The notes beneath the pieces were generated by a model. The model was not told the DNA's origin and did not search any database. It was given only the letters and a program-made list of their open reading frames with translations. Below, one piece after another: positions 45,874-63,958 of a DNA stretch of 64,000 nucleotides. Both the position numbers and the translations under genes were made by a program. The DNA lies in assembly GCA_044221555.1 (NCBI GenBank), contig JBGAOY010000002.1:70376-134375 (forward strand), read 5' to 3'. How positions within the stretch are numbered: the first letter of the stretch is position 1; every line of letters begins with the position of its first letter. Source of the stretch: Acidimicrobiales bacterium (GTDB lineage: Bacteria > Actinomycetota > Acidimicrobiia > Acidimicrobiales > DATDAH01).

Positions 45874-46829
45874 TCGCGGAGCTCCTTGCCCGTCAGCCGG
45901 ATGAAGACGGTCTCGAGGGTGGGCTCGTTGATCGAGAGGTCGGTCACCGAGAACCCACCTTTCTCTGCCGCGGCGACCACGGCGGGCAGGATGCCCTGGC
46001 GGCCGGCCACCTCGAGCTCGATCGTGCCGTCGCCGTGTCGGACCCCGGTGACGCCGTCCACCTCTTGGTGCAGCCAGTCCGACAGGCGGGCCAGGTCGCC
46101 CTCGGCGGACACCGTGACGATGGTGTCGGCCCCCACCGACGCCTTCAGGCCCGCGGCGTGGTCGAGAGCCAGGATCCGGCCCTTGTCCATGATGGCCACC
46201 CGGTCGCAGAGCTGGTCGGCCTCCTCCATGTAATGGGTGGTGAGCAGGATCGTCTGGCCGTCGGCGTGCAGTTGGCGGACCACCTCCCACAGCGCCAGGC
46301 GGCTCTGGGGGTCGAGGCCGGCGGTGGGCTCGTCGAGGAAGAGGATGGCCGGGCGGTGCAGGATGGCCCGCGCCACCATGAGCCGCTGGGCCATGCCCCC
46401 CGACAGGGCCATCACCGGCGCGGTGGCCCGATCGGTGAGGCGGAACTGCTCGAGTGCGCGGTCGGCGGCGGCACGGGCGGCCTTGGCGCTCATGCCGAAG
46501 TACCGGCCGTGGAAGTAGAGGTTCTCGCGGACATCGAGCGACCGGTCCAGCGTGTTGGCCTGGGGCACCACACCGATGGCCTGCTTGGCCAGTGCCGGGT
46601 GGGCCACCACATCGACGCCCCCGACGGTCACGGTGCCGCTGGTGGGCACGACCCCGGTGGTGAGCATGCCGCCGGTCGTGGTCTTGCCGGCACCGTTGGG
46701 GCCGAGCAGGCCGAAGATCTCGCCGCGCCGCACCCGCAGGTCGAGGCCGTCGACGGCCTTGACGCCACCCGGGTACACCTTGGTGAGCCCCTCGGTGATG
46801 ATGACGTCGTCGGCCACGTCCACGAACAT
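45870..46829 (-). CDS. ABC transporter ATP-binding protein (DrrA-like)
   Basis: The start is the ATG at 46829. It has Walker A 'GPNGAGKTT', signature 'LSGGMAQRL' and Walker B 'ILFLDEPT'. Confidence 0.9.
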   Translation of the reverse strand: MFVDVADDVIITEGLTKVYPGGVKAVDGLDLRVRRGEIFGLLGPNGAGKTTTGGMLTTGVVPTSGTVTVGGVDVVAHPALAKQAIGVVPQANTLDRSLDVRENLYFHGRYFGMSAKAARAAADRALEQFRLTDRATAPVMALSGGMAQRLMVARAILHRPAILFLDEPTAGLDPQSRLALWEVVRQLHADGQTILLTTHYMEEADQLCDRVAIMDKGRILALDHAAGLKASVGADTIVTVSAEGDLARLSDWLHQEVDGVTGVRHGDGTIELEVAGRQGILPAVVAAAEKGGFSVTDLSINEPTLETVFIRLTGKELRE

Positions 46830-46907
46830 AGGGGACGAACCCGCCGTCGGCTCGGACACGGTTCGACGGGGTTGCGACAAGTAGACAGCATATGTAACAG
46901 TAGTGCC

Positions 46908-48794
46908 GTGCGGTTCGGGGTGACGCTCGTGGTCTCCTGTCTGCTCGCCAGCACGAGCGTCCCCCTGGTGCACACGGAGCAGGCGGTGGCGGCCACCCGC
47001 CGGGTCGCCACCGCCTCTGCTCCGGCCTCGTGCCGCACCGGCCACGGGGCCGGCACCACCCGTCAGGCGACCATCGCCGACAGGGACGGCGACGGGGATC
47101 TCGAGCCTCGAGGGCCGGAGGGCTACGTCTCGCTGGGCTGGACGTTCGATCCCCATCGTCTCGATGGTCGCTGCCCGTTGACCGCGTTCGTCCAGCTCAC
47201 CGACTTCCAGGTGGTCGACGAGGAGTCACCGGCCCGCGTCGAGATGCTCGACGGGACCCAGCAGGCGCCCGGGGCCGCGCCCTTGAACGCCGCCTACCGC
47301 CCGCAGGAGGCGTTGAGCACCCAGATCGTCGAGTCCATGGTCCGCCAGGTGCGCGGCGTTCGCTCGTCGTTCAGCGGCCGCGGTCCGTCCTTCGCCGTCC
47401 TCACCGGCGACAACGCGGACAACCAGCAGTACAACGAGACCCGCTGGTTCATCGATCTGCTCGACGGTGGCCGCCGCATCGACCCCGACAGCGGTGTGCC
47501 CACGGCCCGGTGCCCCGACGCCGACCCAGCCACGCGGTACGACGGTCCCCAGGGAGGTGGCGGCCCGATCGGGTACTACGACCCGGACGGCGCCGACGAC
47601 GGCACCCAGTACGACATGGTGCCCGACCACCCGGGGCTGCTGGAGCAGGCGCAGCGTCCGTTCCAGGCCACCGGTCTCGGCATGCCGTGGTACTCCGCGG
47701 TCGGCAACCACGACGCGCTGGTGCAGGGCAACAGCCCCAGCGGGTTCGCTGGGCCGCTCGGCCCAGGGGTGGCGGGACCCGATGCGCCGCAGGCATCGGT
47801 GGCCGCCCTCCAGGCGGTGGCGACCGGGTGCGTGAAGGCGACCACGGCGCCGGCATCGCCAACCAGCCTGCTGTCGGTGCTCGCGAACCCGCTGGGCGCA
47901 ATGACGGTCCCTGCCGATCCTCGCCGGTGCCTGCTGGCGGGGGACGACAGCGAAGCCTCGGCCCCGGGCCCCTGCGCAGCAACGAGTTGGATCGACCAGC
48001 ACTTCCGTACCACCTCGTCGCCGGTGGGGCACGGGTTCGCCGCCGGTGCCCACCCCGCCGACCTCCGTGGTTATGGGCGCCCGGCAGTGGCCGACCTCAA
48101 CGACGACGGCTACTACTCCTACCGGCCCGCGTCGGGGCTCCGGTTCGTGGTGCTCGACACCATCACCCACGAGTGCGGGACCGACGTCTGCGCCGAGGGC
48201 TCGCTCGACGACGCCCAGTTCCGCTGGCTCGACGCCCAGTTGCGGGCCGCGGAGGCCGGGAACCAGTACGTGGTGGTGTTCTCACATCACACCGAGGCCA
48301 CCATCCGGTTCCCGTCCACCGACCCGACCGAGGCCCCCCTGCACTTCGGCACCCGGGCCGCCAACCCGGCCACCACCGAATCGCTCGAGGAGCTGCTCTG
48401 CTCGCACCAGCCCACGGTTCTCGCGCACATCGACGGTCACACCCATGAGAACGCAGTCGTGGAGCACCGCTGTGACCAGCTGACCGCACCGCTCCCGGGT
48501 GTGCCCACCGTGGGCGGGTACTGGGAGATCAGCACCGCGTCCCACCTGGACTGGCCGCAGCAGTCCCGGCTGGTGGAGCTGGTCCCGGTGGGTCGTCGCC
48601 ACCTCGCCCTCGTGTGCACGATGGTCGATCACGCCGGCGCCGCCGACCCGTCGGGGGAGCGGGGGGTGGAGCGCCTGGCCTCGATCGCCCGTGCGCTGGC
48701 CTACGCCGACCCGCAGAGCGCGTCATCGGCGCGGGGCGACGCCGTCGACCGCAACGTGATCATCGGCTTCGACCGGCCGCCGCCGACCTCCTGA
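46908..48794 (+). CDS. secreted metallophosphoesterase (TIGR03767-like)
   Basis: The start is the GTG at 46908. The signal-like sequence is 'VTLVVSCLLASTSVPLV'. Motifs are 'FVQLTDFQVVDEESP', 'LTGDNADN', 'AVGNHD', 'VVFSHHT' and 'HIDGHTHEN'. Confidence 0.8.
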   Translation: MRFGVTLVVSCLLASTSVPLVHTEQAVAATRRVATASAPASCRTGHGAGTTRQATIADRDGDGDLEPRGPEGYVSLGWTFDPHRLDGRCPLTAFVQLTDFQVVDEESPARVEMLDGTQQAPGAAPLNAAYRPQEALSTQIVESMVRQVRGVRSSFSGRGPSFAVLTGDNADNQQYNETRWFIDLLDGGRRIDPDSGVPTARCPDADPATRYDGPQGGGGPIGYYDPDGADDGTQYDMVPDHPGLLEQAQRPFQATGLGMPWYSAVGNHDALVQGNSPSGFAGPLGPGVAGPDAPQASVAALQAVATGCVKATTAPASPTSLLSVLANPLGAMTVPADPRRCLLAGDDSEASAPGPCAATSWIDQHFRTTSSPVGHGFAAGAHPADLRGYGRPAVADLNDDGYYSYRPASGLRFVVLDTITHECGTDVCAEGSLDDAQFRWLDAQLRAAEAGNQYVVVFSHHTEATIRFPSTDPTEAPLHFGTRAANPATTESLEELLCSHQPTVLAHIDGHTHENAVVEHRCDQLTAPLPGVPTVGGYWEISTASHLDWPQQSRLVELVPVGRRHLALVCTMVDHAGAADPSGERGVERLASIARALAYADPQSASSARGDAVDRNVIIGFDRPPPTS

Positions 48795-48814: not shown

Positions 48815-49648
48815 TCAGGCGCCGGCGCGGGGTCGTGCTCCGATGGCCAGCCCGCGCACGAGGGAGATGGCGTCGGCGACGTCGGCGGGCAGGGCCTCGA
48901 CCCGTACGTGCCGTCCACCCTGGCCCTGGCCCAGGAGGCCCACTGCGGTGGCCAGGTCCGCCCCCCGGCTCGTGAGGGCCACCATCGTCTGGCTCGACTC
49001 GGTGGGCTCCAGCACCGCCAGCGTGTCGGAGCCCGGGAAGCAGAGACGCAGGTCGCCGGCCAGTCGCAGCCGACGGGCGACCCGGGTGAACGGCGAGGCC
49101 TCGTCCCGGCTGATCTGGGCGACGACCAGGGCGTAGGCATCGGCGGGCGGTGTGCCCAGGTACGAGCAGTGGCGGTAGATCTGCTCGAGGCGGGCCTCGA
49201 GGAACGGTGCCGTCACCAGGCCGGTGAGCTCGTCGATGCAGGTCGGCGGATCGGCGTCGCCGTAGTAGGTCTCGGCCCAGGCGGTGCCCACGGTGGCCGC
49301 GAGCGTCAGGCAGTCCTTGTTCGAGGCGACGGCCGCTCCCGCGGCGGTCAGCACGTCGCAGAACGTGGCCAGGTCGGCGAGGGTGTCGGCGAGCGACACC
49401 CCCGCGGAGGCCCGCGCCTCGCCGAGACGCACGAGGGCCGGGCGGACGTCCTCGCCCCGGAGGGCGCCGAGCAGCAGGTCGGTGGTGACGGGATGGTGCC
49501 AGTGCTGGCGACTGAGGCCCACCCGCTCGCGGCTGAGCCGCCCCCACTCGTCGTGCAGCTCCGCCGCGGCGCTCGGCGCGCTCCGTCGACTGCGCAGGTC
49601 GATGACCTCGTTGCCCGTGGTGCTGCCTGTGCCGTTGCCGGTGCTCAT
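48815..49648 (-). CDS. degenerate GGDEF-like protein, paralog 1 (277 aa)
   Basis: The start is the ATG at 49648. 'CIDELTGLVTAPFLEARLEQIY' resembles the start of a GGDEF domain. 'CFPGSDTLAVLEP' sits where R-x-GGDEF-avll would be. It aligns block by block with the 55423-56289 product. Confidence 0.6.
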   Translation of the reverse strand: MSTGNGTGSTTGNEVIDLRSRRSAPSAAAELHDEWGRLSRERVGLSRQHWHHPVTTDLLLGALRGEDVRPALVRLGEARASAGVSLADTLADLATFCDVLTAAGAAVASNKDCLTLAATVGTAWAETYYGDADPPTCIDELTGLVTAPFLEARLEQIYRHCSYLGTPPADAYALVVAQISRDEASPFTRVARRLRLAGDLRLCFPGSDTLAVLEPTESSQTMVALTSRGADLATAVGLLGQGQGGRHVRVEALPADVADAISLVRGLAIGARPRAGA

Positions 49649-49785
49649 CGGTGTGCTCGCTCCCGTCGTCGTCGTGTGGGGAGAGAGAGCCGGCGCAGGG
49701 CCGATCGTCACGCCGGTCGACCGAGATTTTCGTGGTCGCCCCTGGCCGCTGCCGGACGCTTCCGACCGCGTGCCGGGCACGGGGC

Positions 49786-52116
49786 TCAGGGCGATCGCAC
49801 CTCGATCGGCGCCGGCGGCGGGGCCGCGCCGCCCTGGCGGCGTTCGGCGGCGTCGGCCAGGAGCGCCGCGAGTGGTGCCGGCCGGGCGTAGAGGAAGCCC
49901 TGGCACAGGCGGCAGCCGAGCGTGGCCAGCACCTCGTCCTGCTGGGCGGTCTCGACACCTTCGGCGACCGCGGTCAGTCCCAAGGCCTCGGCCATCCGCA
50001 ACACGGCGCGCACGATGGCGCGGTCCTCGGTGTTCTCGGCGACCCCGTCGATGAACGAGCGGTCGATCTTCAGGGCGTCGACGCGGAAGCGGCGCAGGTA
50101 GGACAGTGAGGAGTACCCGGTGCCGAAGTCGTCGATGGCCAGGCGGATGCCTCTGGCCCGGAGGGCATCGAGGGTCGCGAGCGCGGCGGACGCGTCGTCC
50201 ATCAGCGTGCTCTCGGTCAACTCGAGCCACAGCTTGTCTGCCTGCAGGCCCGACGTGTCGAGGGCCTCGTGCACCGTGGTGGCGAGGCCGGGGTCGGCCA
50301 ACTGGCGGGCCGACAGGTTCACCGCCAGCGACACCTCGGCCAGATGGGGCACCTCGGTCTGCCAGCGGACGGCGTCGGCGCAGGCCTTGTCGAGCACCCA
50401 CGCCCCGATGGGGACGATGAGGCCGGTCTCCTCGGCCACCTCGATGAACTCACCCGGGTAGACCAGGCCCCGTTCGGGGTGGTTCCACCGCACGAGGGCC
50501 TCGATGCCGATCACCGCTCCGGTCGGCGACCAGACCGTGGGCTGGTAGTGGAGCACGAGCTGACCGGCGGGCAGCGCGGCGCGGAGCGCCTGTTCCGTGC
50601 GCAGCCGGTGCTGCATGCGGTCGCGAAGGGTCTGGTCGAAGTGCTCGACCCGTGCCCGTCCCCGCTCCTTGGCGCGGTACAACGCCACGTCGGCGTCGCC
50701 GAGGACGTGCTCGGCGATCGCGGCCTCGAACCCGCGGGCGATGCCGATGCTGGCGGTGATGCGGGTGTCATGGCCGTTGATGTCCATCGGCGCGGCGATG
50801 GCCTGGGCCATCCGCGCCGCCACCTCGTCGGCCTCGACGGCGTCGAGGCCTTCGCACAGCACCACGAACTCGTCGCCGGAGAGCCGACCGACGGTGTCGG
50901 TCGGGCGGATGCAGGCGTGGAGGCGGGCGCCCACCTTGATGAGCACCCGGTCACCGCGCTGGTGGCCCAGGAAGTCGTTCACCAGCTTGAAGCGGTCGAG
51001 GTCGACGAAGAAGACCGTGACGGGGAGCCCCGAGCGGCTGGCCCGCGCCAGCGCCCCTTCGAGGCGGTCGAGCACGAGGGTGCGGTTGGGCAGGCCGGTG
51101 AGCTGGTCGTGCGTGGCCCGGTGCACGGCATCGTCGAGTGCCTGGGCCATCGCTCGGCGCGCGGCATCGTCGTTGAGCGCGAGCGAGACGTGCTCGGCGA
51201 ACAGCAACAGGACATCCTGTTCGTGCTTCGAGAAGCTGCGGTCGTGCTCGCGCGTGCTGACGACCAACGCGCCGGCCACCCTGCCGTCCTGGAACACGGG
51301 CGCCGCCATCGCGGCCTGGAGGCCGACGACCGCGAGGCGGGGGTCGCCGGCGTCGTCGTCCTCGTAGTGCGGGGCCACGACGAGGCGCTGCTCGAGGATG
51401 GCCCGACCGCTCACGCCCACCGTCACCGGGCGCAGCCGGTCGAAGTCGGCGCGATCGGCGCCGGCCAGGGCCACGAGCTCGGACATGGTGGGGTCGCCGG
51501 GCAGGACGAGCCGTACGCCGACCGCGTCGGTGCCGCCCATCAGCGCCCGTGCACCGGTGGCGACCGCGTCGAAGATCTCCTCGGTGGGGATGCGCTCGGC
51601 GATGGAGTGCTGGATCGCCAAGAGGTGGGCCAGGAGGGCACGCCGCTCCTCGAGGTCGGCCAGCAACCGCGAGGCGTCGGCTCGAGCCGTGGCCTCGGAG
51701 CGAGAGAGCCGCAGGAGCTGGACGACGAGGGCGAGGACTCGGCCCATGCCCCGGAGCAGGGCGTGCTCCTCGCCGGTGAACGGAGGGCCGGACCGGCCGA
51801 GGACGAGTGCCCCACGGGGCTCGACGTCCAGGGGGACCACCAACGCGGGGCACGTCCCGCACCCGGGGACCTCGATGGCGCGGACCGTGCCCATCGCGGC
51901 GGCCTGGAGCTCGCCGGCCGCCGGCCCGGCCGCCCCGTAGCCGACCGCGACGACGACGTCGCCGTCGGTCGACAGCAACGCGCCGACCTCGGCGTCGACT
52001 GCCTCGGCGGCGCGTTCGACCGCGGCCTGGAGCAGTGACTCCTCGTCAGCCGTCGCCGTGACCACCGCCACGAACTCGGCGAGCTGGAGGACCGACCAGT
52101 GGCTGGACGTGTCCAC
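49786..52116 (-). CDS. GAF-GAF-GGDEF-EAL c-di-GMP turnover protein
   Basis: The start is the GTG at 52116, 4 nt after the FIST stop. Diguanylate cyclase motifs are 'HDQLTGLPNR' and 'RPTDTVGRLSGDEFVVL' (RxxD I-site plus an SGDEF variant). EAL-domain motifs are 'IEALVRWNHP', 'DDFGTGYSSLSYL', 'LKIDRSF', 'AEGVET' and 'CQGFLYARP'. Confidence 0.9.
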   Translation of the reverse strand: MDTSSHWSVLQLAEFVAVVTATADEESLLQAAVERAAEAVDAEVGALLSTDGDVVVAVGYGAAGPAAGELQAAAMGTVRAIEVPGCGTCPALVVPLDVEPRGALVLGRSGPPFTGEEHALLRGMGRVLALVVQLLRLSRSEATARADASRLLADLEERRALLAHLLAIQHSIAERIPTEEIFDAVATGARALMGGTDAVGVRLVLPGDPTMSELVALAGADRADFDRLRPVTVGVSGRAILEQRLVVAPHYEDDDAGDPRLAVVGLQAAMAAPVFQDGRVAGALVVSTREHDRSFSKHEQDVLLLFAEHVSLALNDDAARRAMAQALDDAVHRATHDQLTGLPNRTLVLDRLEGALARASRSGLPVTVFFVDLDRFKLVNDFLGHQRGDRVLIKVGARLHACIRPTDTVGRLSGDEFVVLCEGLDAVEADEVAARMAQAIAAPMDINGHDTRITASIGIARGFEAAIAEHVLGDADVALYRAKERGRARVEHFDQTLRDRMQHRLRTEQALRAALPAGQLVLHYQPTVWSPTGAVIGIEALVRWNHPERGLVYPGEFIEVAEETGLIVPIGAWVLDKACADAVRWQTEVPHLAEVSLAVNLSARQLADPGLATTVHEALDTSGLQADKLWLELTESTLMDDASAALATLDALRARGIRLAIDDFGTGYSSLSYLRRFRVDALKIDRSFIDGVAENTEDRAIVRAVLRMAEALGLTAVAEGVETAQQDEVLATLGCRLCQGFLYARPAPLAALLADAAERRQGGAAPPPAPIEVRSP

Positions 52117-52120
52117 CCTG

Positions 52121-53350
52121 CTATCCGATGGCGAGGACCACGAGGGTTTGGTTGTGGAGCCCGCTCTGACCGTGGGTCCGGGCGATCTCGCCGTAGGTGT
52201 AGAAGCCCGCCACCGGCGCACCCTCGGCGATCGTGGTGATCCGCTCCACCTCCCGCTGGATGCCGTGCTCGCCGAGCACACCCCGCCGGCCGATGCAGTC
52301 GAAGGCCAGCAGCCCGAGCGGAGGCTGACCGTCGAGGCTGGCCAGCGCGTCGCGGCACGCGGTGGCCGACGCCTCGAGCACCGACGCCTCGTCGCCCTCC
52401 ATGGCCCAGGTGAGACCGCCCTGGGGCACCTGCCCCGCGCACACCAGGGCCCGCGCCTCGAAGTCGGCCTCGTTCACGCAGCGCACCTGCTCGCCGCGTC
52501 GCCGCTGGAGCCCGAGCGGGTGCGTGGTGGCGAACCGGGTGAAGGCGGCCGCGTCGTGGCCGGCGTCGGGTGGGGCACCGAGGCGTTCGAGGTACACGTC
52601 GAGCGCGGGCTGGTCGTCGAGCTCGAGCACCCGGTTGTCCTCGCTGGCGGTGACGAGCAGCGGGTCGCCCACGCGGCTCCAGCCGTGGCGCACACCGATG
52701 CCGAACGGCGCGTCTGACGAGATGGCCGCGGCGACCACGCTGTGGCGCAGCACGTCGGGCCCGTGGAGCTGGACGGTCTGTTCCATGCGGAGGCCGTCGC
52801 CGGCACAACCGCCGACGAGGGGGAGCGCGGCGCCGACCTCCTGGTAGGCCCCCCGCACGATCTCCTCCATGTCGCCGCCGAGGCCGTCGGTGAGCAGGAG
52901 GAGCAGGCGGTGGTCGCCTGGTGGCAGGTCGGCCGCACACCGGGCCGCCACGGCGCTGGCATCACGGAGGCCGAGGTCGGCGGCGTTGGCGGCACCTGTG
53001 GCCACGCGGAAGCCGGGGCCTCCGAAGGCGGTCACCACCACCGACGCGTCCCCTGCGCCCGCCATCGATATCTCGCCGGCGGTGGAGCACCCGATCAACG
53101 CCACGTCGTCGTCGACCGACCGCACCCCGTCGAGCAGGGCCTCGTGGTCGTAGCCGTCCCAGCAGAACACCACGAGCAACGCGGCGTCGTCGTGCAGGAG
53201 GGCGTCGCGGGCGGCCTCGGCGCCGGCCGTGCGCGCGTCGGTGGCGTTGCCACGTCCCACCCCCACCCACCGCGTGGGCCCGGGCACCCGCGGGCGGTGC
53301 CCCTCCATCGTGGTCGTGCCGGCCTGATCGGTCGAACCCGTTGCAGCCAT
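52121..53350 (-). CDS. FIST-domain sensor protein
   Basis: The start is the ATG at 53350, with GGGGAGG upstream. 'ALLVVFCWDGYDHEALLDGVRSV...LIGCSTAGEI' is FIST_N-like, and 'LLAFDCIGRRGVLG...VAGFYTYGEIAR' is FIST_C-like. Confidence 0.8.
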   Translation of the reverse strand: MAATGSTDQAGTTTMEGHRPRVPGPTRWVGVGRGNATDARTAGAEAARDALLHDDAALLVVFCWDGYDHEALLDGVRSVDDDVALIGCSTAGEISMAGAGDASVVVTAFGGPGFRVATGAANAADLGLRDASAVAARCAADLPPGDHRLLLLLTDGLGGDMEEIVRGAYQEVGAALPLVGGCAGDGLRMEQTVQLHGPDVLRHSVVAAAISSDAPFGIGVRHGWSRVGDPLLVTASEDNRVLELDDQPALDVYLERLGAPPDAGHDAAAFTRFATTHPLGLQRRRGEQVRCVNEADFEARALVCAGQVPQGGLTWAMEGDEASVLEASATACRDALASLDGQPPLGLLAFDCIGRRGVLGEHGIQREVERITTIAEGAPVAGFYTYGEIARTHGQSGLHNQTLVVLAIG

Positions 53351-53463
53351 GCCGCCTCCCCTGTGAGCGCGCCCCCGCGAAGGGTACGACACCCGGGCCG
53401 CTACCGCAGGTAGGCCCATCGGGTGGACCGTCGCGGCCGACGCCGAGGTTGCGGCGGCCCCGG

Positions 53464-55422: not shown

Positions 55423-56289
55423 TCAAGGATGACGGAACCCGCCGTCGGGCGCAATGGTGAAGCCCCGGGGGATCGTCGCGAGCTCGCGCACGAGGGCCAC
55501 GGCCTCACCGGCGGTGGCCGGCAACTGCTCCACCCAGACCGCGTCCTGGGGGCACTCGGCCCTCAGGACGGCCACGTCGTCGGCCAGGGAGGGCCCGCAG
55601 TCGGTCAGCACCACCATGGCGTCGGTCGGCTCGAGCAGCGCCACGGTGTCGCCCTCGGGAAAGGCGGTGCGGAGCCGGCCGGCCGCATCGATGCGCCGGG
55701 CGACGCAGGCGAAGGGTGACCGGTCGAGGCACTGCACCTGCAGGACCACCAGCACCTGCTCCCGCTCGGCCTTCCGGCCGTTGGCCGCGCACTGGTGGTA
55801 GCGCTGGCTCAGGCGCGCTTCGAGGAACGTGCCGGTCACGAGGCCGGTGATCGGGTCGGTGCATCCGGGCGCCACGATGTCCGAGTAGAAGGCCTCGGCC
55901 CACGCCGTGCCGGCAACCGATGCGGCGTCGAGGGTGTCCACCCGCCCGAGGGCGGTGTCGCCCGGCTCGGGGGCGCCCGCCGGGACGAGCTCCGCAAGGA
56001 CGCCCAGGTCGGCGAGCAACTCGTCGAGTGAGAGGCCGGCGCCGGCCCGTGCCTGCCCGAGCCGCTCCAGGGCCGGCTCGAGGTCGACGCCGGCGGCGAT
56101 GGCGTCGACGAGGTCACACGTGGCGGGGTGGTACCACTGCTGGCGGCTGAGGCCGAGCCGCATGCGGCTCGTCGCGCCCCAGCGGTCGTGCAGGTCGTCG
56201 AAGGTTGCCGCGTCGGTGGGCTCGCCGAGGTCGAGCAGGATGCCCTGGTCGCGCTGCTCGGTGGGCTGGGTGTGATGGGTGATCGCCAT
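55423..56289 (-). CDS. degenerate GGDEF-like protein, paralog 2 (288 aa)
   Basis: The start is the ATG at 56289, with AGGAGG 8 nt upstream. It has 'CTDPITGLVTGTFLEARLSQRY' and 'AFPEGDTVALLEP'. Its stop lies 33 nt upstream of the sigma gene start. Confidence 0.6.
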   Translation of the reverse strand: MAITHHTQPTEQRDQGILLDLGEPTDAATFDDLHDRWGATSRMRLGLSRQQWYHPATCDLVDAIAAGVDLEPALERLGQARAGAGLSLDELLADLGVLAELVPAGAPEPGDTALGRVDTLDAASVAGTAWAEAFYSDIVAPGCTDPITGLVTGTFLEARLSQRYHQCAANGRKAEREQVLVVLQVQCLDRSPFACVARRIDAAGRLRTAFPEGDTVALLEPTDAMVVLTDCGPSLADDVAVLRAECPQDAVWVEQLPATAGEAVALVRELATIPRGFTIAPDGGFRHP

Positions 56290-56412
56290 GCCGTCTGCCT
56301 CCTGTGAACGGTTCTGGAGGCTGGGAGCCACGGCACCCACGATCGTCACGCCACTTCCGCGGAAAAATCTCCCTCGGCTGCGACCGCTCCCCGTCGGATG
56401 CTTCTGGGTGGG

Positions 56413-56979
56413 TCAGGTGGGCGCGGCCTCGAGGCCGGCGGTGATCGACACGGCCAGGTCGCGCGCCAGGTCGGCCGGTCGGTCGGCCGGCGGGTTGACC
56501 ACCCAGCTCACGATGAGCCGCGTGACGCTGTCGGCCGCCCGCCGGGCCTTGGCCTTGGTGACCCGCGGGCATCGGGCCAGCAAGAGGTCGGCGACCGCTG
56601 GGGTGGCCGCCGACAGCACCGGCGCCTGGTCGGACATCAGGAACGGCAGCACCCGCTCGGGCTCGGTCTCGAGCAGTCGCCCCAACAGCGCGTGCTCACG
56701 GGCGGCCACGAGCGTGGCCAGGATGGCCGCCTCGAGCGCCTCGCGGGCCGACTGGTGGGTGCTCCCTGCCGAGGTGACCACGGCGAGCAGGGCCTCCTCC
56801 TCCCGGAGGATGACCGCGGCGACCACGTCGTCCTTGGTGCGGAAGTAGCGGTACAGGGTCTGCCGCGACAGCCCGGCCCGGCGGGCGACGTCCTCCAGCG
56901 ACAGGCGGGCGATGCCGAACACCGCGATGGCTTCGAACGCCGCGTCCAGGATCCGGCCTCGAGTGTCCGCCGCAGGCAT
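56413..56979 (-). CDS. TetR-family regulator (first of tandem pair)
   Basis: 'RGRILDAAFEAIAVFGIARLSLEDVARRAGLSRQTLYRYFRTKDD' is a TetR HTH. The ATG at 56979 is preferred over the TTG at 56988. Confidence 0.85.
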   Translation of the reverse strand: MPAADTRGRILDAAFEAIAVFGIARLSLEDVARRAGLSRQTLYRYFRTKDDVVAAVILREEEALLAVVTSAGSTHQSAREALEAAILATLVAAREHALLGRLLETEPERVLPFLMSDQAPVLSAATPAVADLLLARCPRVTKAKARRAADSVTRLIVSWVVNPPADRPADLARDLAVSITAGLEAAPT

Positions 56980-57011
56980 CGACGTCAACGTACCCGAGGG
57001 CCGACCCGGAG

Positions 57012-57587
57012 TCAGGCTCGCGGCGCCACGGACTCGGACACGACCCCGCTGAACACGAGGCGGACGAACCAGTCGGCGAACGCGTCCGGTGACTCCTCGA
57101 AGGGGTCGAGCACGTAGCTGATGATCAGCCGGCTCAACACGTCGGCGGTGCGGCGCAGGTCGTCCTCGGCCATCCCGGGCACGAGGTGGCGCAGCAGTCC
57201 GGCCAGGTGGCGGTCGGTGGACGGTCCGGGCAGCGACCCCACCGTGAGGTAGGGGATGAGGGTCTCGGGCTCGGTCTCGAGCAGCCGTTCGATCAGGGGA
57301 TGGGTCCGCACCCCGTCGAGCGTGGCGACGATCGCGGCGCGCAACGCGTCGCGGGGCTCCCGGGCGTCGCGGGTGGCGTCGCGGATCCGCTCGCGGAACC
57401 GGCGCTCCTCCCGATCGACGACCGCGTCGAGCAGGTCGACCTTCGAGGGGAAGTACCGGTACAGGGTCTGGCGCGACAGGTGGGCGCGCTTGGCCACGTC
57501 GGCCAACGACAGCCGGGTGATCCCGTACACGGCCACGGCGTCGTAGGCCGCGTCCACGATCTGACGGTGTGTGCCCTTCTCGTCCAT
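57012..57587 (-). CDS. TetR-family regulator (second of tandem pair, paralog of 56413-56979)
   Basis: 'HRQIVDAAYDAVAVYGITRLSLADVAKRAHLSRQTLYRYFPSKVD' is a TetR HTH. The gene is divergent from the mce operon. Confidence 0.85.
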   Translation of the reverse strand: MDEKGTHRQIVDAAYDAVAVYGITRLSLADVAKRAHLSRQTLYRYFPSKVDLLDAVVDREERRFRERIRDATRDAREPRDALRAAIVATLDGVRTHPLIERLLETEPETLIPYLTVGSLPGPSTDRHLAGLLRHLVPGMAEDDLRRTADVLSRLIISYVLDPFEESPDAFADWFVRLVFSGVVSESVAPRA

Positions 57588-57680: not shown

Positions 57681-58583
57681 ATGTCAGTGCTCACCAGGAA
57701 CAGCAACAGGGTGGCGATGCCGGAGTCGCCGCCCGCGCCCGAGGGCGTGATCTCCTTACGGGGGGTGACGAAGTCGTTCGGCTCGCACACCGTGCTCGAG
57801 GACATCAGCTTCGACGTCCCCAAGGGGGAGATCAGCGCCATCATGGGCCCGTCGGGGACGGGCAAGTCGGTGCTGTTGAAGAACATCATCGGGCTGCTGC
57901 GGCCCGAGCGGGGCGAGATCTTCGTCGACGGCGAGCAGATCGTGGGCATGCGCGAGAAGGACCTGATGCGGGTCCGGCGCAAGATGGGCGTGCTGTTCCA
58001 GGACGGCGCGCTGTTCGGGTCGCTGAACCTGTTCGACAACATCGCGTTCCCGCTCCGTGAGCACACCCGCAAGACCGAGAAGGACATCCGCGACATCACG
58101 TTGGCCAAGGCCAGCCTGGTCGGGCTGCTCGACCACCTGAAGAAGTTCCCGGGCGAGGTGTCGGGTGGCATGAAGAAGCGGGCCGGGCTGGCGCGGGCGC
58201 TGTCGATGGACCCCGAGATCGTCCTGTTCGACGAGCCCGACTCGGGCCTCGATCCCGTCCGGGTGAGCTACCTCGACGAGTTGGTGAAGAAGACCCAGGA
58301 GGAGACGGGCGCCACCTTCTTCATCATCACCCACAACATCCCCTCGGCCATGCGCACGGCCGACCACATCGGCGTGCTCTTCCGCTCGGGCCTGGTCCGG
58401 TTCGCCCCCAAGCAGGAGATGGTGGACAGCGAGGACCCGATCATCCAGCAGTTCCTGGCCGGACGGGCCTTCGGCCCCATCGGGATGGACGAGTTGGCCA
58501 CGGAGGAGACCGACGTGGAGAAGGAGCTGGTCGCCCGGGCGCAGGCCCGCTCCGCCGCCGGCACGGAGCACCTCCCGGTCTGA
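57681..58583 (+). CDS. mceG: Mce-system ABC ATPase (MceG/Mkl, MlaF-like)
   Basis: It has Walker A 'GPSGTGKS', signature 'VSGGMKKRAGLARAL' and Walker B 'VLFDEPDSGLDP'. It sits first in the yrbE/mce operon. Confidence 0.85.
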   Translation: MSVLTRNSNRVAMPESPPAPEGVISLRGVTKSFGSHTVLEDISFDVPKGEISAIMGPSGTGKSVLLKNIIGLLRPERGEIFVDGEQIVGMREKDLMRVRRKMGVLFQDGALFGSLNLFDNIAFPLREHTRKTEKDIRDITLAKASLVGLLDHLKKFPGEVSGGMKKRAGLARALSMDPEIVLFDEPDSGLDPVRVSYLDELVKKTQEETGATFFIITHNIPSAMRTADHIGVLFRSGLVRFAPKQEMVDSEDPIIQQFLAGRAFGPIGMDELATEETDVEKELVARAQARSAAGTEHLPV

Positions 58584-59374
58584 TGGCCACCACCACGATC
58601 CCCCTCGCCGGCAAGGTGGAGTCGCTCCTTCGCGAGACCGGCACCATGGCATCGGTCGGCCTCGAAGCCACCCGCAAGGTGTTCAGCCGGCCGTGGCCGC
58701 TGGCCGAGTTCCTGGACCAGCTGTGGTTCCTGGCCAAGGTCACCACCATCCCGGTCATCTTGATCTCCATCCCCTTCGGGATGGTCATCTCGTTGCAGGT
58801 GGGGTCGCTCATCCGCCAACTGGGCGCCGAGGCCCACCTGGGCTCGGCCCTCGTGCTGGCGGTCGTGCGCGAGCAGGCCCCCATCGCGACGGCCCTGATG
58901 ATCGCCGGTGCCGGGGGCTCGGCCATGTGCGCCGACCTGGGGGCCCGCCGCATCCGTGACGAGATCTCGGCGATGGAGGTGATGGGCGTGAACCCCATCC
59001 AGCGCCTGGTGATGCCCCGGATCCTCGCCGCCACGGTGCTCGCGGTGCTGCTGGACGCGGTGGTGAGCGCCGCGGGGATCGCCGGTGGCTGGTTCTTCGC
59101 GGTGCGGGTGAACGGGGTGAGCTCGAGCAGCTTCTTCGCCTCCTTCAACGAGCTGAGCCAGTTGGCCGACCTGTGGATGGCCCTGGTGAAGGCGGCGTGC
59201 TTCGGGTTCATCGCCGGCACGGTGGCCTGTTACAAGGGGCTCTACGCGAAGGGCGGGCCCAAGGGCGTGGGCGACGCGGTGAACCAGGCCGTGGTGATCA
59301 CCTTCGTCCTGTTGTTCTTCGTGAACTTCGTGCTCACGGTCGTCTACTTCAACTTCGTCCCCCAGAAGGTGTGA
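58583..59374 (+). CDS. yrbEA: YrbE/MlaE-family permease A
   Basis: The protein is 263 aa. It has 'REQAPIATALMIAGAGGSAMCADLGARRIRDEISAMEVMGVNP', typical of MlaE/YrbE. Its start overlaps the mceG stop (TGATG). Confidence 0.85.
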   Translation: MATTTIPLAGKVESLLRETGTMASVGLEATRKVFSRPWPLAEFLDQLWFLAKVTTIPVILISIPFGMVISLQVGSLIRQLGAEAHLGSALVLAVVREQAPIATALMIAGAGGSAMCADLGARRIRDEISAMEVMGVNPIQRLVMPRILAATVLAVLLDAVVSAAGIAGGWFFAVRVNGVSSSSFFASFNELSQLADLWMALVKAACFGFIAGTVACYKGLYAKGGPKGVGDAVNQAVVITFVLLFFVNFVLTVVYFNFVPQKV

Positions 59375-59375
59375 G

Positions 59376-60254
59376 ATGACCGAGCCCGCTGCCTCGTCGT
59401 CCTCGTCCTCGTCGTTCGCCGCCGCCGCCTTCGACCGGTTCGGCCGCCCGGTCGATGCCGCGCTCAACCCGTGGACCCAGCTGTACGACCAGTTGCGCTT
59501 CTACGCGATGATCCTGCGCCGCCTGCCCTCGGCGTTGCGCTACCGCAAGGAGATCATCACCCTGATCTCCGACATCACCATCGGCGCCGGTGCCCTGGTG
59601 GTGGGCGGGGGGATGTTCTTCGTCATCTTCTCGATGAGCTTCTTCACCGGCACCGAGGTGGGCCTCCAGGGGTTCAAGGGCCTCCAGCAGATCGGGGCCG
59701 AGGCGTTCACGGGCGTGGTGTCGTCGGTGGCCAACACCCGCGAGATCACACCGCTCATCGCCGGTGTGGCCCTCGCCGCCCAGGTCGGCGCGGGCTTCAC
59801 CGCGCAGCTCGGCGCCATGCGCATCTCCGACGAGGTCGACGCCCTCGAGGTGATGGGCGTGGACAGCGTGGTGTACCTGGTGTGCACCCGGGTGTGGGCC
59901 GCCCTGATCACGATGGTGCCCCTCTACCTGGCGGCGCTCTTCGCCAGCTTCCTGGCCACGGAGCTGGTGGTGACCCGGTTCTTCACGCTGTCGCCGGGCG
60001 TGTACCGCCACTACTTCAACCTCTTCCTGCCGCCGATCGACATCCTCTGCTCGTTCGCCAAGGCCATGTTGTTCGCGGTGGTGGTCACCCTCGTCCACTG
60101 CTTCTACGGGTACTACGCCACGGGGGGCCCGGCCGGTGTGGGTCAGGCCGCCGGCCGCGCCATCCGGGTGTCGATCATCGCCGTGGTGGTGCTGAACCTG
60201 ATCCTGTCGCTCGTGTTCTGGGGTGGGAGCGACACCGCGAGGATCGTGGGGTGA
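59376..60254 (+). CDS. yrbEB: YrbE/MlaE-family permease B
   Basis: The protein is 292 aa. It has 'REITPLIAGVALAAQVGAGFTAQLGAMRISDEVDALEVMGVDS'. Confidence 0.85.
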   Translation: MTEPAASSSSSSSFAAAAFDRFGRPVDAALNPWTQLYDQLRFYAMILRRLPSALRYRKEIITLISDITIGAGALVVGGGMFFVIFSMSFFTGTEVGLQGFKGLQQIGAEAFTGVVSSVANTREITPLIAGVALAAQVGAGFTAQLGAMRISDEVDALEVMGVDSVVYLVCTRVWAALITMVPLYLAALFASFLATELVVTRFFTLSPGVYRHYFNLFLPPIDILCSFAKAMLFAVVVTLVHCFYGYYATGGPAGVGQAAGRAIRVSIIAVVVLNLILSLVFWGGSDTARIVG

Positions 60255-60258
60255 GCGC

Positions 60259-61551
60259 GTGAGAGGGGGTCGCACCGGGCGCGGTGAGGCGGCCCGCGGC
60301 TCGCGTGCGCTCGCCGCGCTGGCCATGACCGCCGCGTTCGCGCTGATCGTCACCACCGCGGTGCGGTGGGCCTACGGCGCCTACGACAGCGGCTACCAAC
60401 TGGTCGGCACCTTCGAGCACGCCGGACAGGGCCTGATCCCCGGCTCGGACGTGAAGTACCGCGGTGTCGACGTGGGCGAGGTGGACTCGATCCGGCTGGT
60501 CGATCGGCGGGCGGAGATCCGCTTCACCATCCATCCGGGGTTCCGGGTGCCCGAGGGCGCCCGGATCGTGGTGCGGCCCAAGACCATCTTCGGCGAGAAG
60601 TACCTCGATCTCACGTTCCCCGACGGCCCGGCCGGCCCCTACCTGCAGGACGGCGACGAGGTGACCCACACGGGGGCCGCCACCGAGGTGGAGGACCTGT
60701 TCGCGTCGGCGCAGCCCCTGCTGGACGCGATCGACGAGCAGGAGCTGGCCGAGCTGGTGGCGTCGGCGGCCCGCACGGCCAACGGCCTCGGCGACGACAT
60801 CGCCCGGGGATGGGAGAGCGGGGCGGCCACCACTGCGCTGTTGAACGACACGCTCGAGGCGCAGCTGACCGCGCTGGCCTCGGCTGCCGACTTCCAGGAG
60901 GCCGTGCGCACCGTGGGCGGTGACCTCAACACCATCTCGGCCAACAACAACCTGGCCCTGCCCGAGTTCAACCGGGCGCGCGCCGACTTCGAGCGGGCGC
61001 TGGTGTCGCTGCAGGGCTTCGGCGACCACTTCGCCGACCTGATCGAGGGCACGCGACCGGATCTGGACCGGATCTTCACGTCGGGCGACAACGTGATGCG
61101 GGTGCTCATCAGCCACCACGACGAGGTGGCTCAGGTGGTCGACGGCCTGGCCAACTACGTCAGCGCCTTCGGGGGCGGGCTGAGTGCCGAGCGACTGCCC
61201 GACGGGTCGGGCTTCGCCTACTTCAAGAACTTCGTCTACGTGGACCAGATCCAGGACGTGCTGTGCAGCGCCCTGGCCGAGACGCCGGCCCAGTTCAGCG
61301 CGTTCCGCGACGCGGTCCTGTCGCTGGGCGGGCCCATCGACTGCTCGGGGTACTTCTCGCCGTCGGGCACGCCGCTGCCCCCGGTGATCCCCGAGGGTCA
61401 GCGGCCCGCGGCCGCCCAGCAACTGTCCGACAGCCTCTACGGGCTGGTCGGTGTCCCCGACCAGAGCGTGCCCGCCCCGGTCGATGTGCTGGTCGACCGG
61501 GTGCTGACCGCGGCCGGGCTCCCCACCCACGACGGGGGGGCGGGGCGATGA
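60259..61551 (+). CDS. mceA: MCE-family substrate-binding protein (first)
   Basis: It has an N-terminal TM and the MCE domain 'YQLVGTFEHAGQGLIPGSDVKYRGVDVGEVDSIRL', followed by a long helical region. I chose the GTG at 60259, just after the yrbEB stop. Confidence 0.8.
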   Translation: MRGGRTGRGEAARGSRALAALAMTAAFALIVTTAVRWAYGAYDSGYQLVGTFEHAGQGLIPGSDVKYRGVDVGEVDSIRLVDRRAEIRFTIHPGFRVPEGARIVVRPKTIFGEKYLDLTFPDGPAGPYLQDGDEVTHTGAATEVEDLFASAQPLLDAIDEQELAELVASAARTANGLGDDIARGWESGAATTALLNDTLEAQLTALASAADFQEAVRTVGGDLNTISANNNLALPEFNRARADFERALVSLQGFGDHFADLIEGTRPDLDRIFTSGDNVMRVLISHHDEVAQVVDGLANYVSAFGGGLSAERLPDGSGFAYFKNFVYVDQIQDVLCSALAETPAQFSAFRDAVLSLGGPIDCSGYFSPSGTPLPPVIPEGQRPAAAQQLSDSLYGLVGVPDQSVPAPVDVLVDRVLTAAGLPTHDGGAGR

Positions 61552-62732
61552 GGCTGCTCGGACGGCTGAAGCGGGCGCTGGCCGCGGAAGGGCGGGTGCT
61601 GGTCAAGCTGGGCATCTACACGCTGGGCTGCCTGGTCGTGCTGGGCTGGCTGGTCTCGCAGGTCGGCAACGTGACGTGGTTCGCCGACCGGTCCGAGTAC
61701 CGGGCCGAGTTGAACGACGTCACGGGCCTGGTGGTGAACGACGAGGTGAAGATCGCGGGCGTGGAGGTCGGGAAGGTCACCGGCATCTCCACCGACCACG
61801 GCCATGCGGTGGTGACGTTCACGATCGACTCCGACGTGGTGCTGCGGGACACCACCCAGGTGGGGGTGCGGTGGCGCAACGTGCTGGGCCAGAAGTACCT
61901 GTACCTCTACCCGGCCGACGGCGGCGACGTCCTGGCCGCCGGGAGCACCCTGCCCCTCGACCAGGCCGTCGACTCGGCCGACGTGGGCGACTTCCTGAAC
62001 GCGGTGGGCCCGGTGCTCCAGGCCATCGACCCCGCCGACGCCAACGCCTTCGTGCAGGCCCTGAACGAAGGCCTCCAGGGCAACGAGGCCCGCGTCCGCC
62101 GACTGCTGAGCGACACCGCCGGCGTGTCGGACACCTTGGGGGGCCTCGACACCGAGGTGGGCAGCATCATCACCAACCTCGACGACGTGGTCGGCGCCCT
62201 CGCCGAGCGCGACCAGGCCGTGGACGCCACCTTGCGCAACCTGTCGTCGCTGAGCGACGACCTGGCCGCCCGCAACGACTCGCTGCAGTCGGTGGTGACC
62301 GACTTCTCGCACGTCTCCGAGCAGCTGAACACCCTGCTGGAGGACAAGCGGGGTGACCTCGACGCGACCATCGCCGACCTCGAGACCATCCTCGGCGTGC
62401 TCGACCAGAACCGGGCCGGGCTCGAGGACACCCTGGCCACCCTGCCCGAGGGCGTGGCGCCCTACCACCTGATCTCGGCCTACGGGCAGTGGTTCCAGGT
62501 GCGGGCCACCATCGCCTGCCTGGCCAACCAGACGACCTGCGCCAAGGAGGACCCGTTCAGCGGGACGTCGGCGCCCGTGGGTGAGACGGGGTCGTCGGGC
62601 GCGCCGTCGCTCGCGATGATCGTCGGGTTCGCCAACTCGGGCGGCTCGCAGCCCACGGCCGGGCTGCCGGGGAGCGGCGGTGGGCTGCCGCCGGTGGCGG
62701 CCACCGCCGCCAGCACGGGGGTGGGCGGATGA
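61548..62732 (+). CDS. mceB: MCE-family substrate-binding protein (second)
   Basis: The ATG at 61548 overlaps the upstream stop (ATGA). The MCE domain is 'YRAELNDVTGLVVNDEVKIAGVEVGKVTGIS'. Confidence 0.8.
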   Translation: MRLLGRLKRALAAEGRVLVKLGIYTLGCLVVLGWLVSQVGNVTWFADRSEYRAELNDVTGLVVNDEVKIAGVEVGKVTGISTDHGHAVVTFTIDSDVVLRDTTQVGVRWRNVLGQKYLYLYPADGGDVLAAGSTLPLDQAVDSADVGDFLNAVGPVLQAIDPADANAFVQALNEGLQGNEARVRRLLSDTAGVSDTLGGLDTEVGSIITNLDDVVGALAERDQAVDATLRNLSSLSDDLAARNDSLQSVVTDFSHVSEQLNTLLEDKRGDLDATIADLETILGVLDQNRAGLEDTLATLPEGVAPYHLISAYGQWFQVRATIACLANQTTCAKEDPFSGTSAPVGETGSSGAPSLAMIVGFANSGGSQPTAGLPGSGGGLPPVAATAASTGVGG

Positions 62733-63958
62733 AGTCGTTCACCGAGCGCAACCCGATCGTGATCGGGATCGTGGTCATCGCCCTCATCGCCGCCGCGGTG
62801 ACGGGTGCGCTGGTGCTGAACGCCGGCGTGTTCAAGGGCCGCTACACGGTGAGTGCCCGGTTCACCGACGCCGCCGGCCTGCGCCCCGGCGACCGTGTGC
62901 GGGTGGCCGGTGTGCCGTCCGGTGAGGTGGCGTCGGTGCACGAGGAGGACGGTCAGGTCGAGGTGACCATGCGGGTGGACGACAGCGTCGAGCTCTCGGG
63001 GGACACCCGGGCCGCCGTGGTCGTGGAGACGGTGCTGGGCACCAAGACGGTGAAGCTGGAGACGGGCGACGACTGGGACCACCCCCTCGGCGACGGCGAC
63101 GTGATCACCGAGACCGAGACCCCGGTCGAGGTGCTCGACCTGCAGAACATCGGCACCCGGCTGTTCACCGAGAGCGACGGGGCCGCGTTCGACGACCTGA
63201 TCGACAGCCTGAACCAGATCACCGAGGACAAGCGCTCCGATGTCCGCCACATCGTGCGGGGCGTGAACCGGCTGACCACCGCGCTGAACAGCCGCGACCA
63301 GGAAGCCCGCGACCTGTTCGACTCGGCCGAGACCCTCACCCGCACACTGGCCGACCGCGACGACGACCTGGCCGGTGCGGTGGACGACCTCAACGTGGTG
63401 ATCGGCGACCTGGCCGACCGGCGCCAGGAGCTCGAGACCCTGCTGGAGCAGACCTCGGAGGCCGCCGGTCGCCTGGCCGACCTCGTCGGCGACAACCGGC
63501 CCCAGCTCGACGCCGTGCTGGCCGACCTGCACACGACGTTGGAGGTCATCGGCCGGCACCAGGTGGACCTGGCCGCCGGTGTCGGCTACCTGGGCGCCGC
63601 GCTCGAAGGGTTCTCGTCCATCGGGTACTCGGGCCCGGGCAACACCCCCAACGAGTGGGGCAACATCTTCACCCAGCTGATCGGGCCCGTCTCGCCGGAC
63701 GGCATCCTGGGCGCCTGCGGCCCGTTCGACCGGGCGCTCGATCTGGCCTTCGGCCCCGACCCGCTGCCGTGCGACCAGCGGGAGGGGCCGCTGCCGAACA
63801 CCTCCGGCTCGACCACCACCCCGCCGTCGGCGGGCGGACCGACACCCTCGATCCCCTCGACCGACCCCGCCGCCGGCGGTGGTGGATCGGGCTCGGGGGG
63901 CGCCGACCAGCTCGGCCAGCTCCTGGCGCCGCTGCTGGCCACGGGGGGTGGCTCGTGA
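62729..63958 (+). CDS. mceC: MCE-family substrate-binding protein (third)
   Basis: The ATG at 62729 overlaps the upstream stop. The MCE domain is 'YTVSARFTDAAGLRPGDRVRVAGVPSGEVASV', and the tail is Pro/Gly-rich. Confidence 0.8.
   Translation: MKSFTERNPIVIGIVVIALIAAAVTGALVLNAGVFKGRYTVSARFTDAAGLRPGDRVRVAGVPSGEVASVHEEDGQVEVTMRVDDSVELSGDTRAAVVVETVLGTKTVKLETGDDWDHPLGDGDVITETETPVEVLDLQNIGTRLFTESDGAAFDDLIDSLNQITEDKRSDVRHIVRGVNRLTTALNSRDQEARDLFDSAETLTRTLADRDDDLAGAVDDLNVVIGDLADRRQELETLLEQTSEAAGRLADLVGDNRPQLDAVLADLHTTLEVIGRHQVDLAAGVGYLGAALEGFSSIGYSGPGNTPNEWGNIFTQLIGPVSPDGILGACGPFDRALDLAFGPDPLPCDQREGPLPNTSGSTTTPPSAGGPTPSIPSTDPAAGGGGSGSGGADQLGQLLAPLLATGGGS

Follow-up and report, generated by a model that had tools for sequence, protein, structure and literature searches.

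In Actinobacteria, sigma factors are commonly found fused to their own anti-sigma domain and to a membrane anchor. Of these proteins, SCO4117 of Streptomyces coelicolor alone has been studied, and its regulation was called "complex" and left unresolved (PMC5826349). For fusions that join a sigma factor, a zinc anti-sigma domain (ZAS) and a transmembrane (TM) segment, as in the extracytoplasmic function (ECF) groups ECF48/52/53, activation by proteolysis has been predicted (PMC8999054). A second described system, MabR (Rv2242), combines a non-haem globin domain, a GGDEF-like domain lacking the active site (A-site) and the inhibitory site (I-site), and a helix-turn-helix (HTH) domain, a combination reported as specific to Actinomycetes (PMC11617747). 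In this study, we analysed a 64,000-nucleotide stretch from an Acidimicrobiales bacterium (contig JBGAOY010000002.1; hereafter the window), with 72% G+C and its nearest relatives among Microthrixaceae and other Acidimicrobiales metagenome-assembled genomes (MAGs). The window carries two paralogous genes, A and B, which encode soluble, cytoplasmic proteins, an adjoining gene for a membrane-anchored ECF sigma factor, and a bipartite promoter-like element upstream of each paralog. On balance, we think it probable that the A and B proteins, each a sensor-like domain followed by a dead GGDEF fold, form a fixed module with this sigma factor, and that the element is its -35/-10 promoter. The features that carry this reading are the following.

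55423..56289, minus strand: paralog A, coding sequence of 288 amino acids (aa), ATG start, at the head of the A-sigma operon; same protein as database entry P0001
48815..49648, minus strand: paralog B, coding sequence of 277 aa, ATG start, identical to P0021
53464..55389, minus strand: ECF sigma factor with zinc anti-sigma domain (zf-HC2), one TM helix and an Ala/Thr/Gly/Pro-rich exterior, 641 aa (Pfam Sigma70_r2 and zf-HC2)
56322..56352, minus strand: bipartite promoter-like element upstream of A, GGCGTGA-N19-TCCCA (weight matrix 32.7 bits, best of 128,000 positions)
49684..49714, minus strand: bipartite element upstream of B, GGCGTGA-N19-TCTCT (weight matrix 20.3 bits, second best in the window)

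The sigma protein displays sigma regions 2 and 4, the zinc anti-sigma motif HLETCPRC (residue 228) and, at about residues 250-266, a hydrophobic stretch; an r4_2 Pfam match is also present in its orthologues, and Pfam detected no carbohydrate-binding module in the window protein. By architecture it resembles the ECF48/52/53 fusions, including SCO4117, with which it shares sigma-2, sigma-4, an HxxxCxxC zinc finger, one TM helix and a Pro-rich exterior (PMC5826349; PMC8999054). SCO4117 likewise lies downstream of a TetR gene, atrA (PMC5826349). However, the papers that we found on these groups mention no conserved globin- or GGDEF-like neighbour, and the promoter motif differs.

The pairing of A-type genes with this sigma gene is conserved. 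In Acidimicrobiales-type loci the sigma gene (a product of about 600 aa with Sigma70_r2 and zf-HC2) lies 33-40 bp downstream of the A-type gene, and the order TetR-TetR-A-sigma(-B) holds in 10 out of 10, with a divergent Mce operon syntenic with the A-sigma pair. The sequence-only reading of the window had asked whether homologs elsewhere occur singly or in pairs, and next to which genes. Both arrangements exist: five loci end at sigma and have the single A-sigma form, whereas A and B are paired in the window, in its 87% identical relative L008 and in L004, L005 and L006, where sigma continues directly into a B-type gene; in all ten, sigma is alongside. A scan of metagenome contigs with an alignment of a broader clade returned 80 loci, and a sigma-ZAS gene is the divergent neighbour in all 67 that have at least 395 nt of upstream flank, its start lying 76-291 nt from that of the family gene; the 13 loci without a match have too little flank. 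A scan of a genome collection gave three loci only. Distant members, at about 30% protein identity, retain the pairing with the two genes divergent (one gene lies between them in L016), and it recurs in MAGs labelled Streptosporangiales or Mycobacteriales and on a Nonomuraea chromosome. On a Paenarthrobacter plasmid (L020) a 558-aa gene annotated as sigma-70 family comes next after the family gene, and pairing with the sigma-ZAS type is probable there; flanks of about 6 kb on an Arthrobacter megaplasmid showed no identifiable sigma gene. Over their first 270 residues, the sigma proteins of five distant loci are 42-59% identical to that of the window, which places them in one orthologous group.

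The upstream element is as sharply defined. A weight matrix trained solely on six A-type sites outside the window and L008 ranks the sites of A and B first and second among the 128,000 positions of both strands, and the next best site scores 4.4 bits. The two sites share the 13-mer GGCGTGACGATCG exactly, and it occurs nowhere else in the window. When the regions upstream of the A-type genes of eight loci and of B in the window and L008 are aligned, an invariant GGCGTGACGA box is followed at fixed distance by a second box, GGCTC(C/T). In the broad clade, 64 unique upstream regions have GCGTCA(T/C)-N-(C/G)TCTCA(T), with exactly 19 nt from CGTCA to TCTCA. Across clades the consensus reads GCGT(C/G)A-N19-TCTC(A/T), and the spacer is invariably 19 nt. 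A loose regular expression matched 88 times on both strands of 511 kb, and 75 of these matches lie at most 130 nt upstream of a family gene. The promoters read by ECF sigma factors are typically bipartite, highly conserved and rigidly spaced, and such a promoter often stands before a conserved gene next to that of the sigma factor, as in ECF41. The present module follows the logic of ECF41 and ECF42, in which the sigma factor has a built-in regulatory extension and its gene has a conserved neighbour (in ECF41 the bearer of the group-specific promoter), but differs from both in sigma group, target family and promoter sequence.

The geometry of the element is equally constrained. In the broad clade an in-frame ATG or GTG follows the second box by 6 nt in 50 loci and by 5 nt in eight (58 of the 64), and no Shine-Dalgarno sequence was found in front of the broad-clade family genes that have the element. 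Leaderless mRNAs are common in Actinobacteria, and their promoters place a -10-like box 5-6 nt before the start codon; the broad-clade arrangement therefore fits the promoter of a leaderless mRNA. In the Acidimicrobiales branch the element is followed by a leader of about 35 nt with a Shine-Dalgarno sequence: AGGAGG precedes the A start at 56289, and GGGAG precedes the B start at 49648. Several further details were noted around the element. In the broad clade (L021-L100) box 1, GCGTCAT, forms an inverted repeat with the start region, ATGAC, and codon 2 is ACN in 56 of 65 unique loci while the protein N-termini are otherwise variable, which points to a constraint at the DNA or RNA level. In L046-L099 (e.g. 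L053, L084 and L099) boxes of the form GGGTGAA(A/T/C) recur at variable distance upstream of the element, often twice within one intergenic region, and may be a second promoter or a regulator site.

These details bear on a different view of the element, as an operator for a DNA-binding regulator or as an RNA leader element with an indirect link to sigma. Beside the inverted repeat and the codon 2 preference of the broad clade, it can call on the leader of the Acidimicrobiales branch and on the two TetR genes that adjoin A in the Acidimicrobiales loci. In the window the genes upstream of A are as follows.

56413..57587, minus strand: two tandem TetR (TetR_C_35) regulator genes upstream of A (Pfam, synteny)
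57690-63958, plus strand: divergent Mce/Mla lipid-transport operon (ATPase, MlaE, MlaD/Mce4_CUP1), syntenic

Yet the inverted repeat and the TetR genes are each limited to one clade, whereas the arrangement of box 1, N19 and box 2, and its orientation, are common to both, and a start codon that follows at a fixed 5-6 nt, with no Shine-Dalgarno sequence, is typical for the -10 box of a leaderless gene. We thus consider an operator or leader element unlikely. A palindromic TetR operator was rejected, as no inverted repeat is conserved in the Acidimicrobiales copies. Two other candidates were also discarded. A classic ECF promoter of the AAC-N16-CGT type was dropped since the A-rich upstream box is variably spaced and not common to both clades, and a minus-strand reading of the element, driving the divergent sigma gene, was rejected because in Acidimicrobiales the element keeps its orientation toward A and B though sigma lies downstream.

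Both paralogs predicted from the sequence alone are present on the minus strand. They are 47% identical (114 of 243 aa; 58% positives, seven gap positions, E = 3e-62 by BLASTP with composition-based statistics), and the conserved blocks that had been picked out by eye along their full length are all there. The A open reading frame (ORF) has a G+C content at third codon positions (GC3) of 0.91. It had been asked whether the likeness might be confined to low-complexity segments; it is not. Among 54 distant relatives, with identities of only 23-45%, the near-invariant columns are W37, W52, L77, G78, R81, G85, E90, D94, W130, D145, G149, L150, L156, R159, L160 and Y164, hence mostly Trp, Gly, Arg, Asp, Glu, Tyr and Leu. 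The two genes lie 5.8 kb apart, and no third copy was found in the 64 kb of the window. Against their orthologues in L008 (a Microthrixaceae MAG), 87-91% identical, the ratio of nonsynonymous to synonymous substitution rates (dN/dS) is 0.33 for A and 0.20 for B; both copies are therefore under purifying selection and neither is decaying, in line with the earlier view that they are not junk. In a neighbour-joining tree the A clade is separate from the B clade, and the P0029/P0030 type is sister to B, so that the duplication is old within the Acidimicrobiales-type branch. Given an old duplication and selection on both copies, the proposal that they are subfunctionalised regulators appears plausible.

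The proteins belong to a sizeable family that carries no annotation. An exhaustive profile search, counting clusters at the 50% identity level, found at least 793 at E <= 1e-3, of which 529 remain at E <= 1e-10 and 127 at E <= 1e-30. Among the 150 best members listed, most have 230-300 aa and are matched over nearly their full length. Word-indexed searches gave some 30 close relatives, every one a hypothetical protein of Acidimicrobiales-type MAGs and metagenomes; a third such search, with alignment A2, contributed few more. Named members occur in MAGs labelled Streptosporangiales or Mycobacteriales, in Cellulomonas, and on replicons of Nonomuraea, Arthrobacter and Paenarthrobacter; nearly all are annotated as "hypothetical protein", and the family spans several orders of Actinobacteria. 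No Pfam or NCBIfam model reached its threshold in A, B or any relative scanned. GGDEF_2 is the commonest Pfam match (8 of 54 relatives, best E 3e-4), with every individually seen score below the cut-off, and the PucR HTH domain (HTH_30, PF13556) gave no match in A, B or the 54 relatives. Among single members, P0034 (453 aa) is seemingly a head-to-tail fusion of two whole family units. P0017 and P0018 match the family over the first 110 or so profile positions only and then pass, in another reading frame, into sigma-like sequence, probably because the gene calls are frameshifted or chimeric.

The genomic surroundings of the family vary among lineages. L013, L017, L015 and L018 are flanked by conserved housekeeping genes, dnaK-grpE-dnaJ-hspR and nrdHIEF in some and purA and fba in others, so that in these lineages the sigma/family module looks vertically inherited rather than mobile. 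The plasmid members (L019 5770-6705 in Arthrobacter; L020 5001-5726 in Paenarthrobacter) adjoin genes for SpaA/LPXTG-type pilins or surface proteins, and that of L020 lies upstream of two sigma-70 family genes; the plasmid-borne module may be mobile and linked to surface structures.

The C-terminal half of A and B had been read as a GGDEF-like core lacking the GGDEF signature, and structure prediction bears this out: a GGDEF fold was found, and not an unrelated one. The relevant segments are these.

55474..55863, minus strand: C-terminal degenerate GGDEF-fold domain of A, residues ~143-272 (Foldseek; profile matches to GGDEF chains in the PDB; secondary structure)
55618..55632, minus strand: EPTDA hairpin of A, structural equivalent of GG(D/E)EF (hidden Markov model (HMM) alignment to DgcR; DSSP strands 215-219 and 224-230)
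55645..55656, minus strand: EGDT of A at the position of the RxxD inhibitory site, the Arg being replaced by Pro211 just upstream (HMM alignment to DgcR)
48845..49240, minus strand: degenerate GGDEF-fold domain of B (alignment to A; weak Pfam GGDEF_2 match)
48995-49009, minus strand: EPTES hairpin of B
49022-49033, minus strand: GSDT of B

In an AlphaFold2 model of A (from an alignment of 28 sequences; mean pLDDT 83.8), residues 1-28 are disordered, 30-138 helical and 145-272 beta-alpha. The top 50 Foldseek matches of this model in the PDB are all GGDEF-domain proteins, including 3EZU, DgcZ, DgcR, FimX, CC_0091 and TpbB, with target-normalised TM-scores of 0.55-0.64 over some 150-160 columns for isolated GGDEF domains. 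A profile of the wider family also reaches GGDEF chains by sequence (DgcR at E 2.3e-4, FimX at E 2.5e-3, and several others), and the narrow-family profile does so more weakly. B has a subthreshold GGDEF_2 (PF17853) match (E 0.005, 17.5 bits against a cut-off of 24.5) and A has none; neither matches PF00990, which hits just three of the 54 relatives (best E 0.04). The D145xxTGL block, earlier taken as the entry into the domain, does align with the DxLTGLxNRR entry helix of true GGDEF domains. Conversely, EGDT and GSDT had been placed at the position of GG(D/E)EF, and this register was about seven residues off. From the HMM alignment to DgcR together with the strand positions in the A model, they correspond to the I-site RKSD of DgcR, with Pro in place of Arg, and the hairpin equivalent to GG(D/E)EF is EPTDA in A and EPTES in B.

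With this register, the case against catalysis is stronger than when it was first made. The A-site hairpin is variable across the family and GG(D/E)EF is not found; the I-site position, in cyclases five residues upstream of the A-site, reads PEGD in A, PGSD in B and xGGE across the wider family, so that RxxD is missing as well; the FKxxND substrate-binding segment and the metal-binding Asp of beta-1 are absent from A and B; and the domain is shorter than a catalytic GGDEF domain, the proteins ending about 15 residues after it. By these losses A and B appear catalytically dead, and cyclase activity is very unlikely. Catalytic GGDEF cyclases (PF00990; DgcR 6ZXM, PleD, DgcZ) share the fold, the DxLTGL entry helix and profile homology, but A and B differ from them in all of these motifs and fall below the Pfam gathering score. 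That A and B might be active diguanylate cyclases with an unorthodox active site, for which only the fold speaks, is hardly credible.

Degenerate GGDEF domains often act as receptors of cyclic di-GMP (c-di-GMP). A and B could accordingly be read as receptors of this or a related nucleotide second messenger, in the manner of FimX, PelD and PopA, which likewise make non-catalytic use of an inactive GGDEF fold; at this locus they would read the output of two genes that lie between sigma and B.

52121..53419, minus strand: FIST sensor protein, between sigma and B (Pfam)
49786..52281, minus strand: GAF-GAF-GGDEF-EAL protein, listed ORF (Pfam)

The listed GGDEF-EAL ORF overlaps the 3' end of the FIST gene by 160 nt; its real start is probably a GTG at about 52116, right after the FIST stop. 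FimX is among the best matches both by sequence and by structure, and the pair of c-di-GMP turnover genes sits inside the cluster in the window and in L008. However, FimX, PelD and PopA bind c-di-GMP through RxxD or an EAL domain, and A and B have neither; canonical binding at an I-site is thus not supported. The guanine-binding Asn and Asp positions are not conserved either. Furthermore, FIST and GAF-GAF-GGDEF-EAL between sigma and B are missing from all the other loci examined, which makes them a recent lineage-specific insertion and leaves the sigma gene as the conserved neighbour. The sequence-only reading saw two copies kept around the same signalling genes, but the conserved partner is the sigma fusion and not the c-di-GMP genes. 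With RxxD missing and the c-di-GMP genes a lineage-specific insertion, we regard a receptor role as quite unlikely. Downstream of B and convergent to it, a 664-aa ORF (46800-48794, plus strand) shows motifs that look metallophosphoesterase-like (GNHD, GHTHEN); it gave no Pfam match at E <= 1e-3.

The N-terminal region, previously described as helical without a nameable domain, is indeed helical in the model.

55870..56205, minus strand: N-terminal helical domain of A, residues ~29-140, tentatively a non-haem globin-like bundle (AlphaFold2, Foldseek)

Modelled alone, it is predicted with a pLDDT of 91.2 and a pTM of 0.84. It has no sequence match in the PDB, and its Foldseek matches there are weak (E 0.15-1.7, TM-score 0.3-0.49) and mostly to globins, including those of the globin-coupled sensors BpeGReg and AfGcHK; RsbRD_N, a family of domains that form the N-terminus of the RsbT co-antagonist RsbRD, is matched weakly in two of the 54 relatives. 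No histidine that could be the proximal haem ligand is invariant or near-invariant in a 39-sequence alignment of this domain or in the 54-sequence alignment. Considering the weak fold matches and the lack of a conserved histidine, "non-haem globin-like" is a tentative label. The globin-coupled sensor cyclases BpeGReg and DosC present the same order, a globin-like sensor followed by GGDEF, and the BpeGReg globin reaches a query-normalised TM-score of 0.49; the similarity to A and B is nonetheless weak, there is no conserved haem-ligating histidine, and the GGDEF domain is dead.

The closest parallel in architecture is offered by the PucR-type regulators, including MabR (PF17853, HTH_30; PDB 9FB1, 9F80 and 3ONQ), which are actinobacterial and have the same succession of a helical sensor, globin-type in MabR and tentatively so in A and B, and a GGDEF fold with neither A-site nor I-site. 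A and B differ in lacking the HTH_30 DNA-binding domain. Moreover, the family profile matches no MabR or 3ONQ chain in the PDB, though true GGDEF chains are matched; MabR is not among the top 50 Foldseek matches; and strict genomic pairing with a sigma factor has not been described for PucR regulators. The resemblance to a MabR sensor module without its DNA-binding domain suggests signalling through protein contacts. A and B might thus be trans-acting regulators of sigma, modules that bind the sigma or the zinc anti-sigma part and add a cytoplasmic input, like a PucR or MabR in which a separate sigma factor has taken the place of the DNA-binding output. Adjacency to sigma is kept at about 30% protein identity and through a change of orientation (co-directional in Acidimicrobiales, divergent elsewhere), a linkage tighter than co-regulation alone requires; A and B also have the architecture of the MabR sensor half without HTH, and no enzymatic motifs. 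On the other hand, no fusion of family and sigma domains is seen among the 150 best family representatives. We hold this to be possible but doubtful; it is compatible with the promoter reading, as a feedback loop. A specific form of it, in which the A/B family would be the missing cytoplasmic partner of the membrane-tethered sigma/anti-sigma fusions of Actinobacteria, a sigma-induced, HTH-less globin/GGDEF-like sensor that binds back to sigma or its zinc anti-sigma part and gates release or activity, strikes us as improbable.

Our preferred reading, with the element as the promoter of the adjacent sigma factor, can be drawn as a circuit. In the operon A, sigma, FIST and GGDEF-EAL are separated by 33 bp, 44 bp and roughly zero, and B has its own copy of the element after a 137-bp gap. 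An envelope signal would release the sigma domain, by proteolysis as predicted for such fusions; free sigma would then transcribe A and, via A, its own gene together with FIST and GGDEF-EAL, and B separately. Since A is the first gene of the operon that includes sigma, sigma would induce itself through A. The A and B proteins would then bind ligands or proteins and so act, without enzymatic activity, in output or feedback. From sequence comparison, we infer that A and B are most likely dedicated targets of the neighbouring sigma factor, and possibly its feedback partners. Several observations weigh against this reading. In the broad clade the element was not found upstream of the sigma genes, so that it is adjacency that ties it to that sigma factor. 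In L004 and L005 B is without the element, and is probably transcribed by read-through from A-sigma. The element resembles neither the classic ECF AAC-N16-CGT nor the CSGYN-17-SRHA motif that has been put forward for SCO4117 (ECF52), and, as set out above, it could be an operator rather than a promoter. Finally, the globin-like assignment of the N-terminal domain comes from weak Foldseek matches (E >= 0.15).

Degenerate GGDEF domains, globin-type sensors and ECF sigma factors with a conserved neighbouring gene are all of known kinds. What appears to be new is their combination, the strict linkage and the promoter-like element: among papers, Pfam entries and NCBIfam models we found none that names the family or the linkage, and the ECF classification literature may already list the neighbour. 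Overall, the pairing links one orthologous group of these sigma factors with a sensor-like protein that lacks annotation and with a sharply delimited promoter-like element, and it offers a candidate direct target promoter, a candidate regulatory partner and simple testable predictions. It also leaves a sizeable family, without a Pfam or NCBIfam model, now to be defined, and one that architecture links to the sensor half of MabR, which regulates mycolic-acid synthesis in Mycobacterium tuberculosis.

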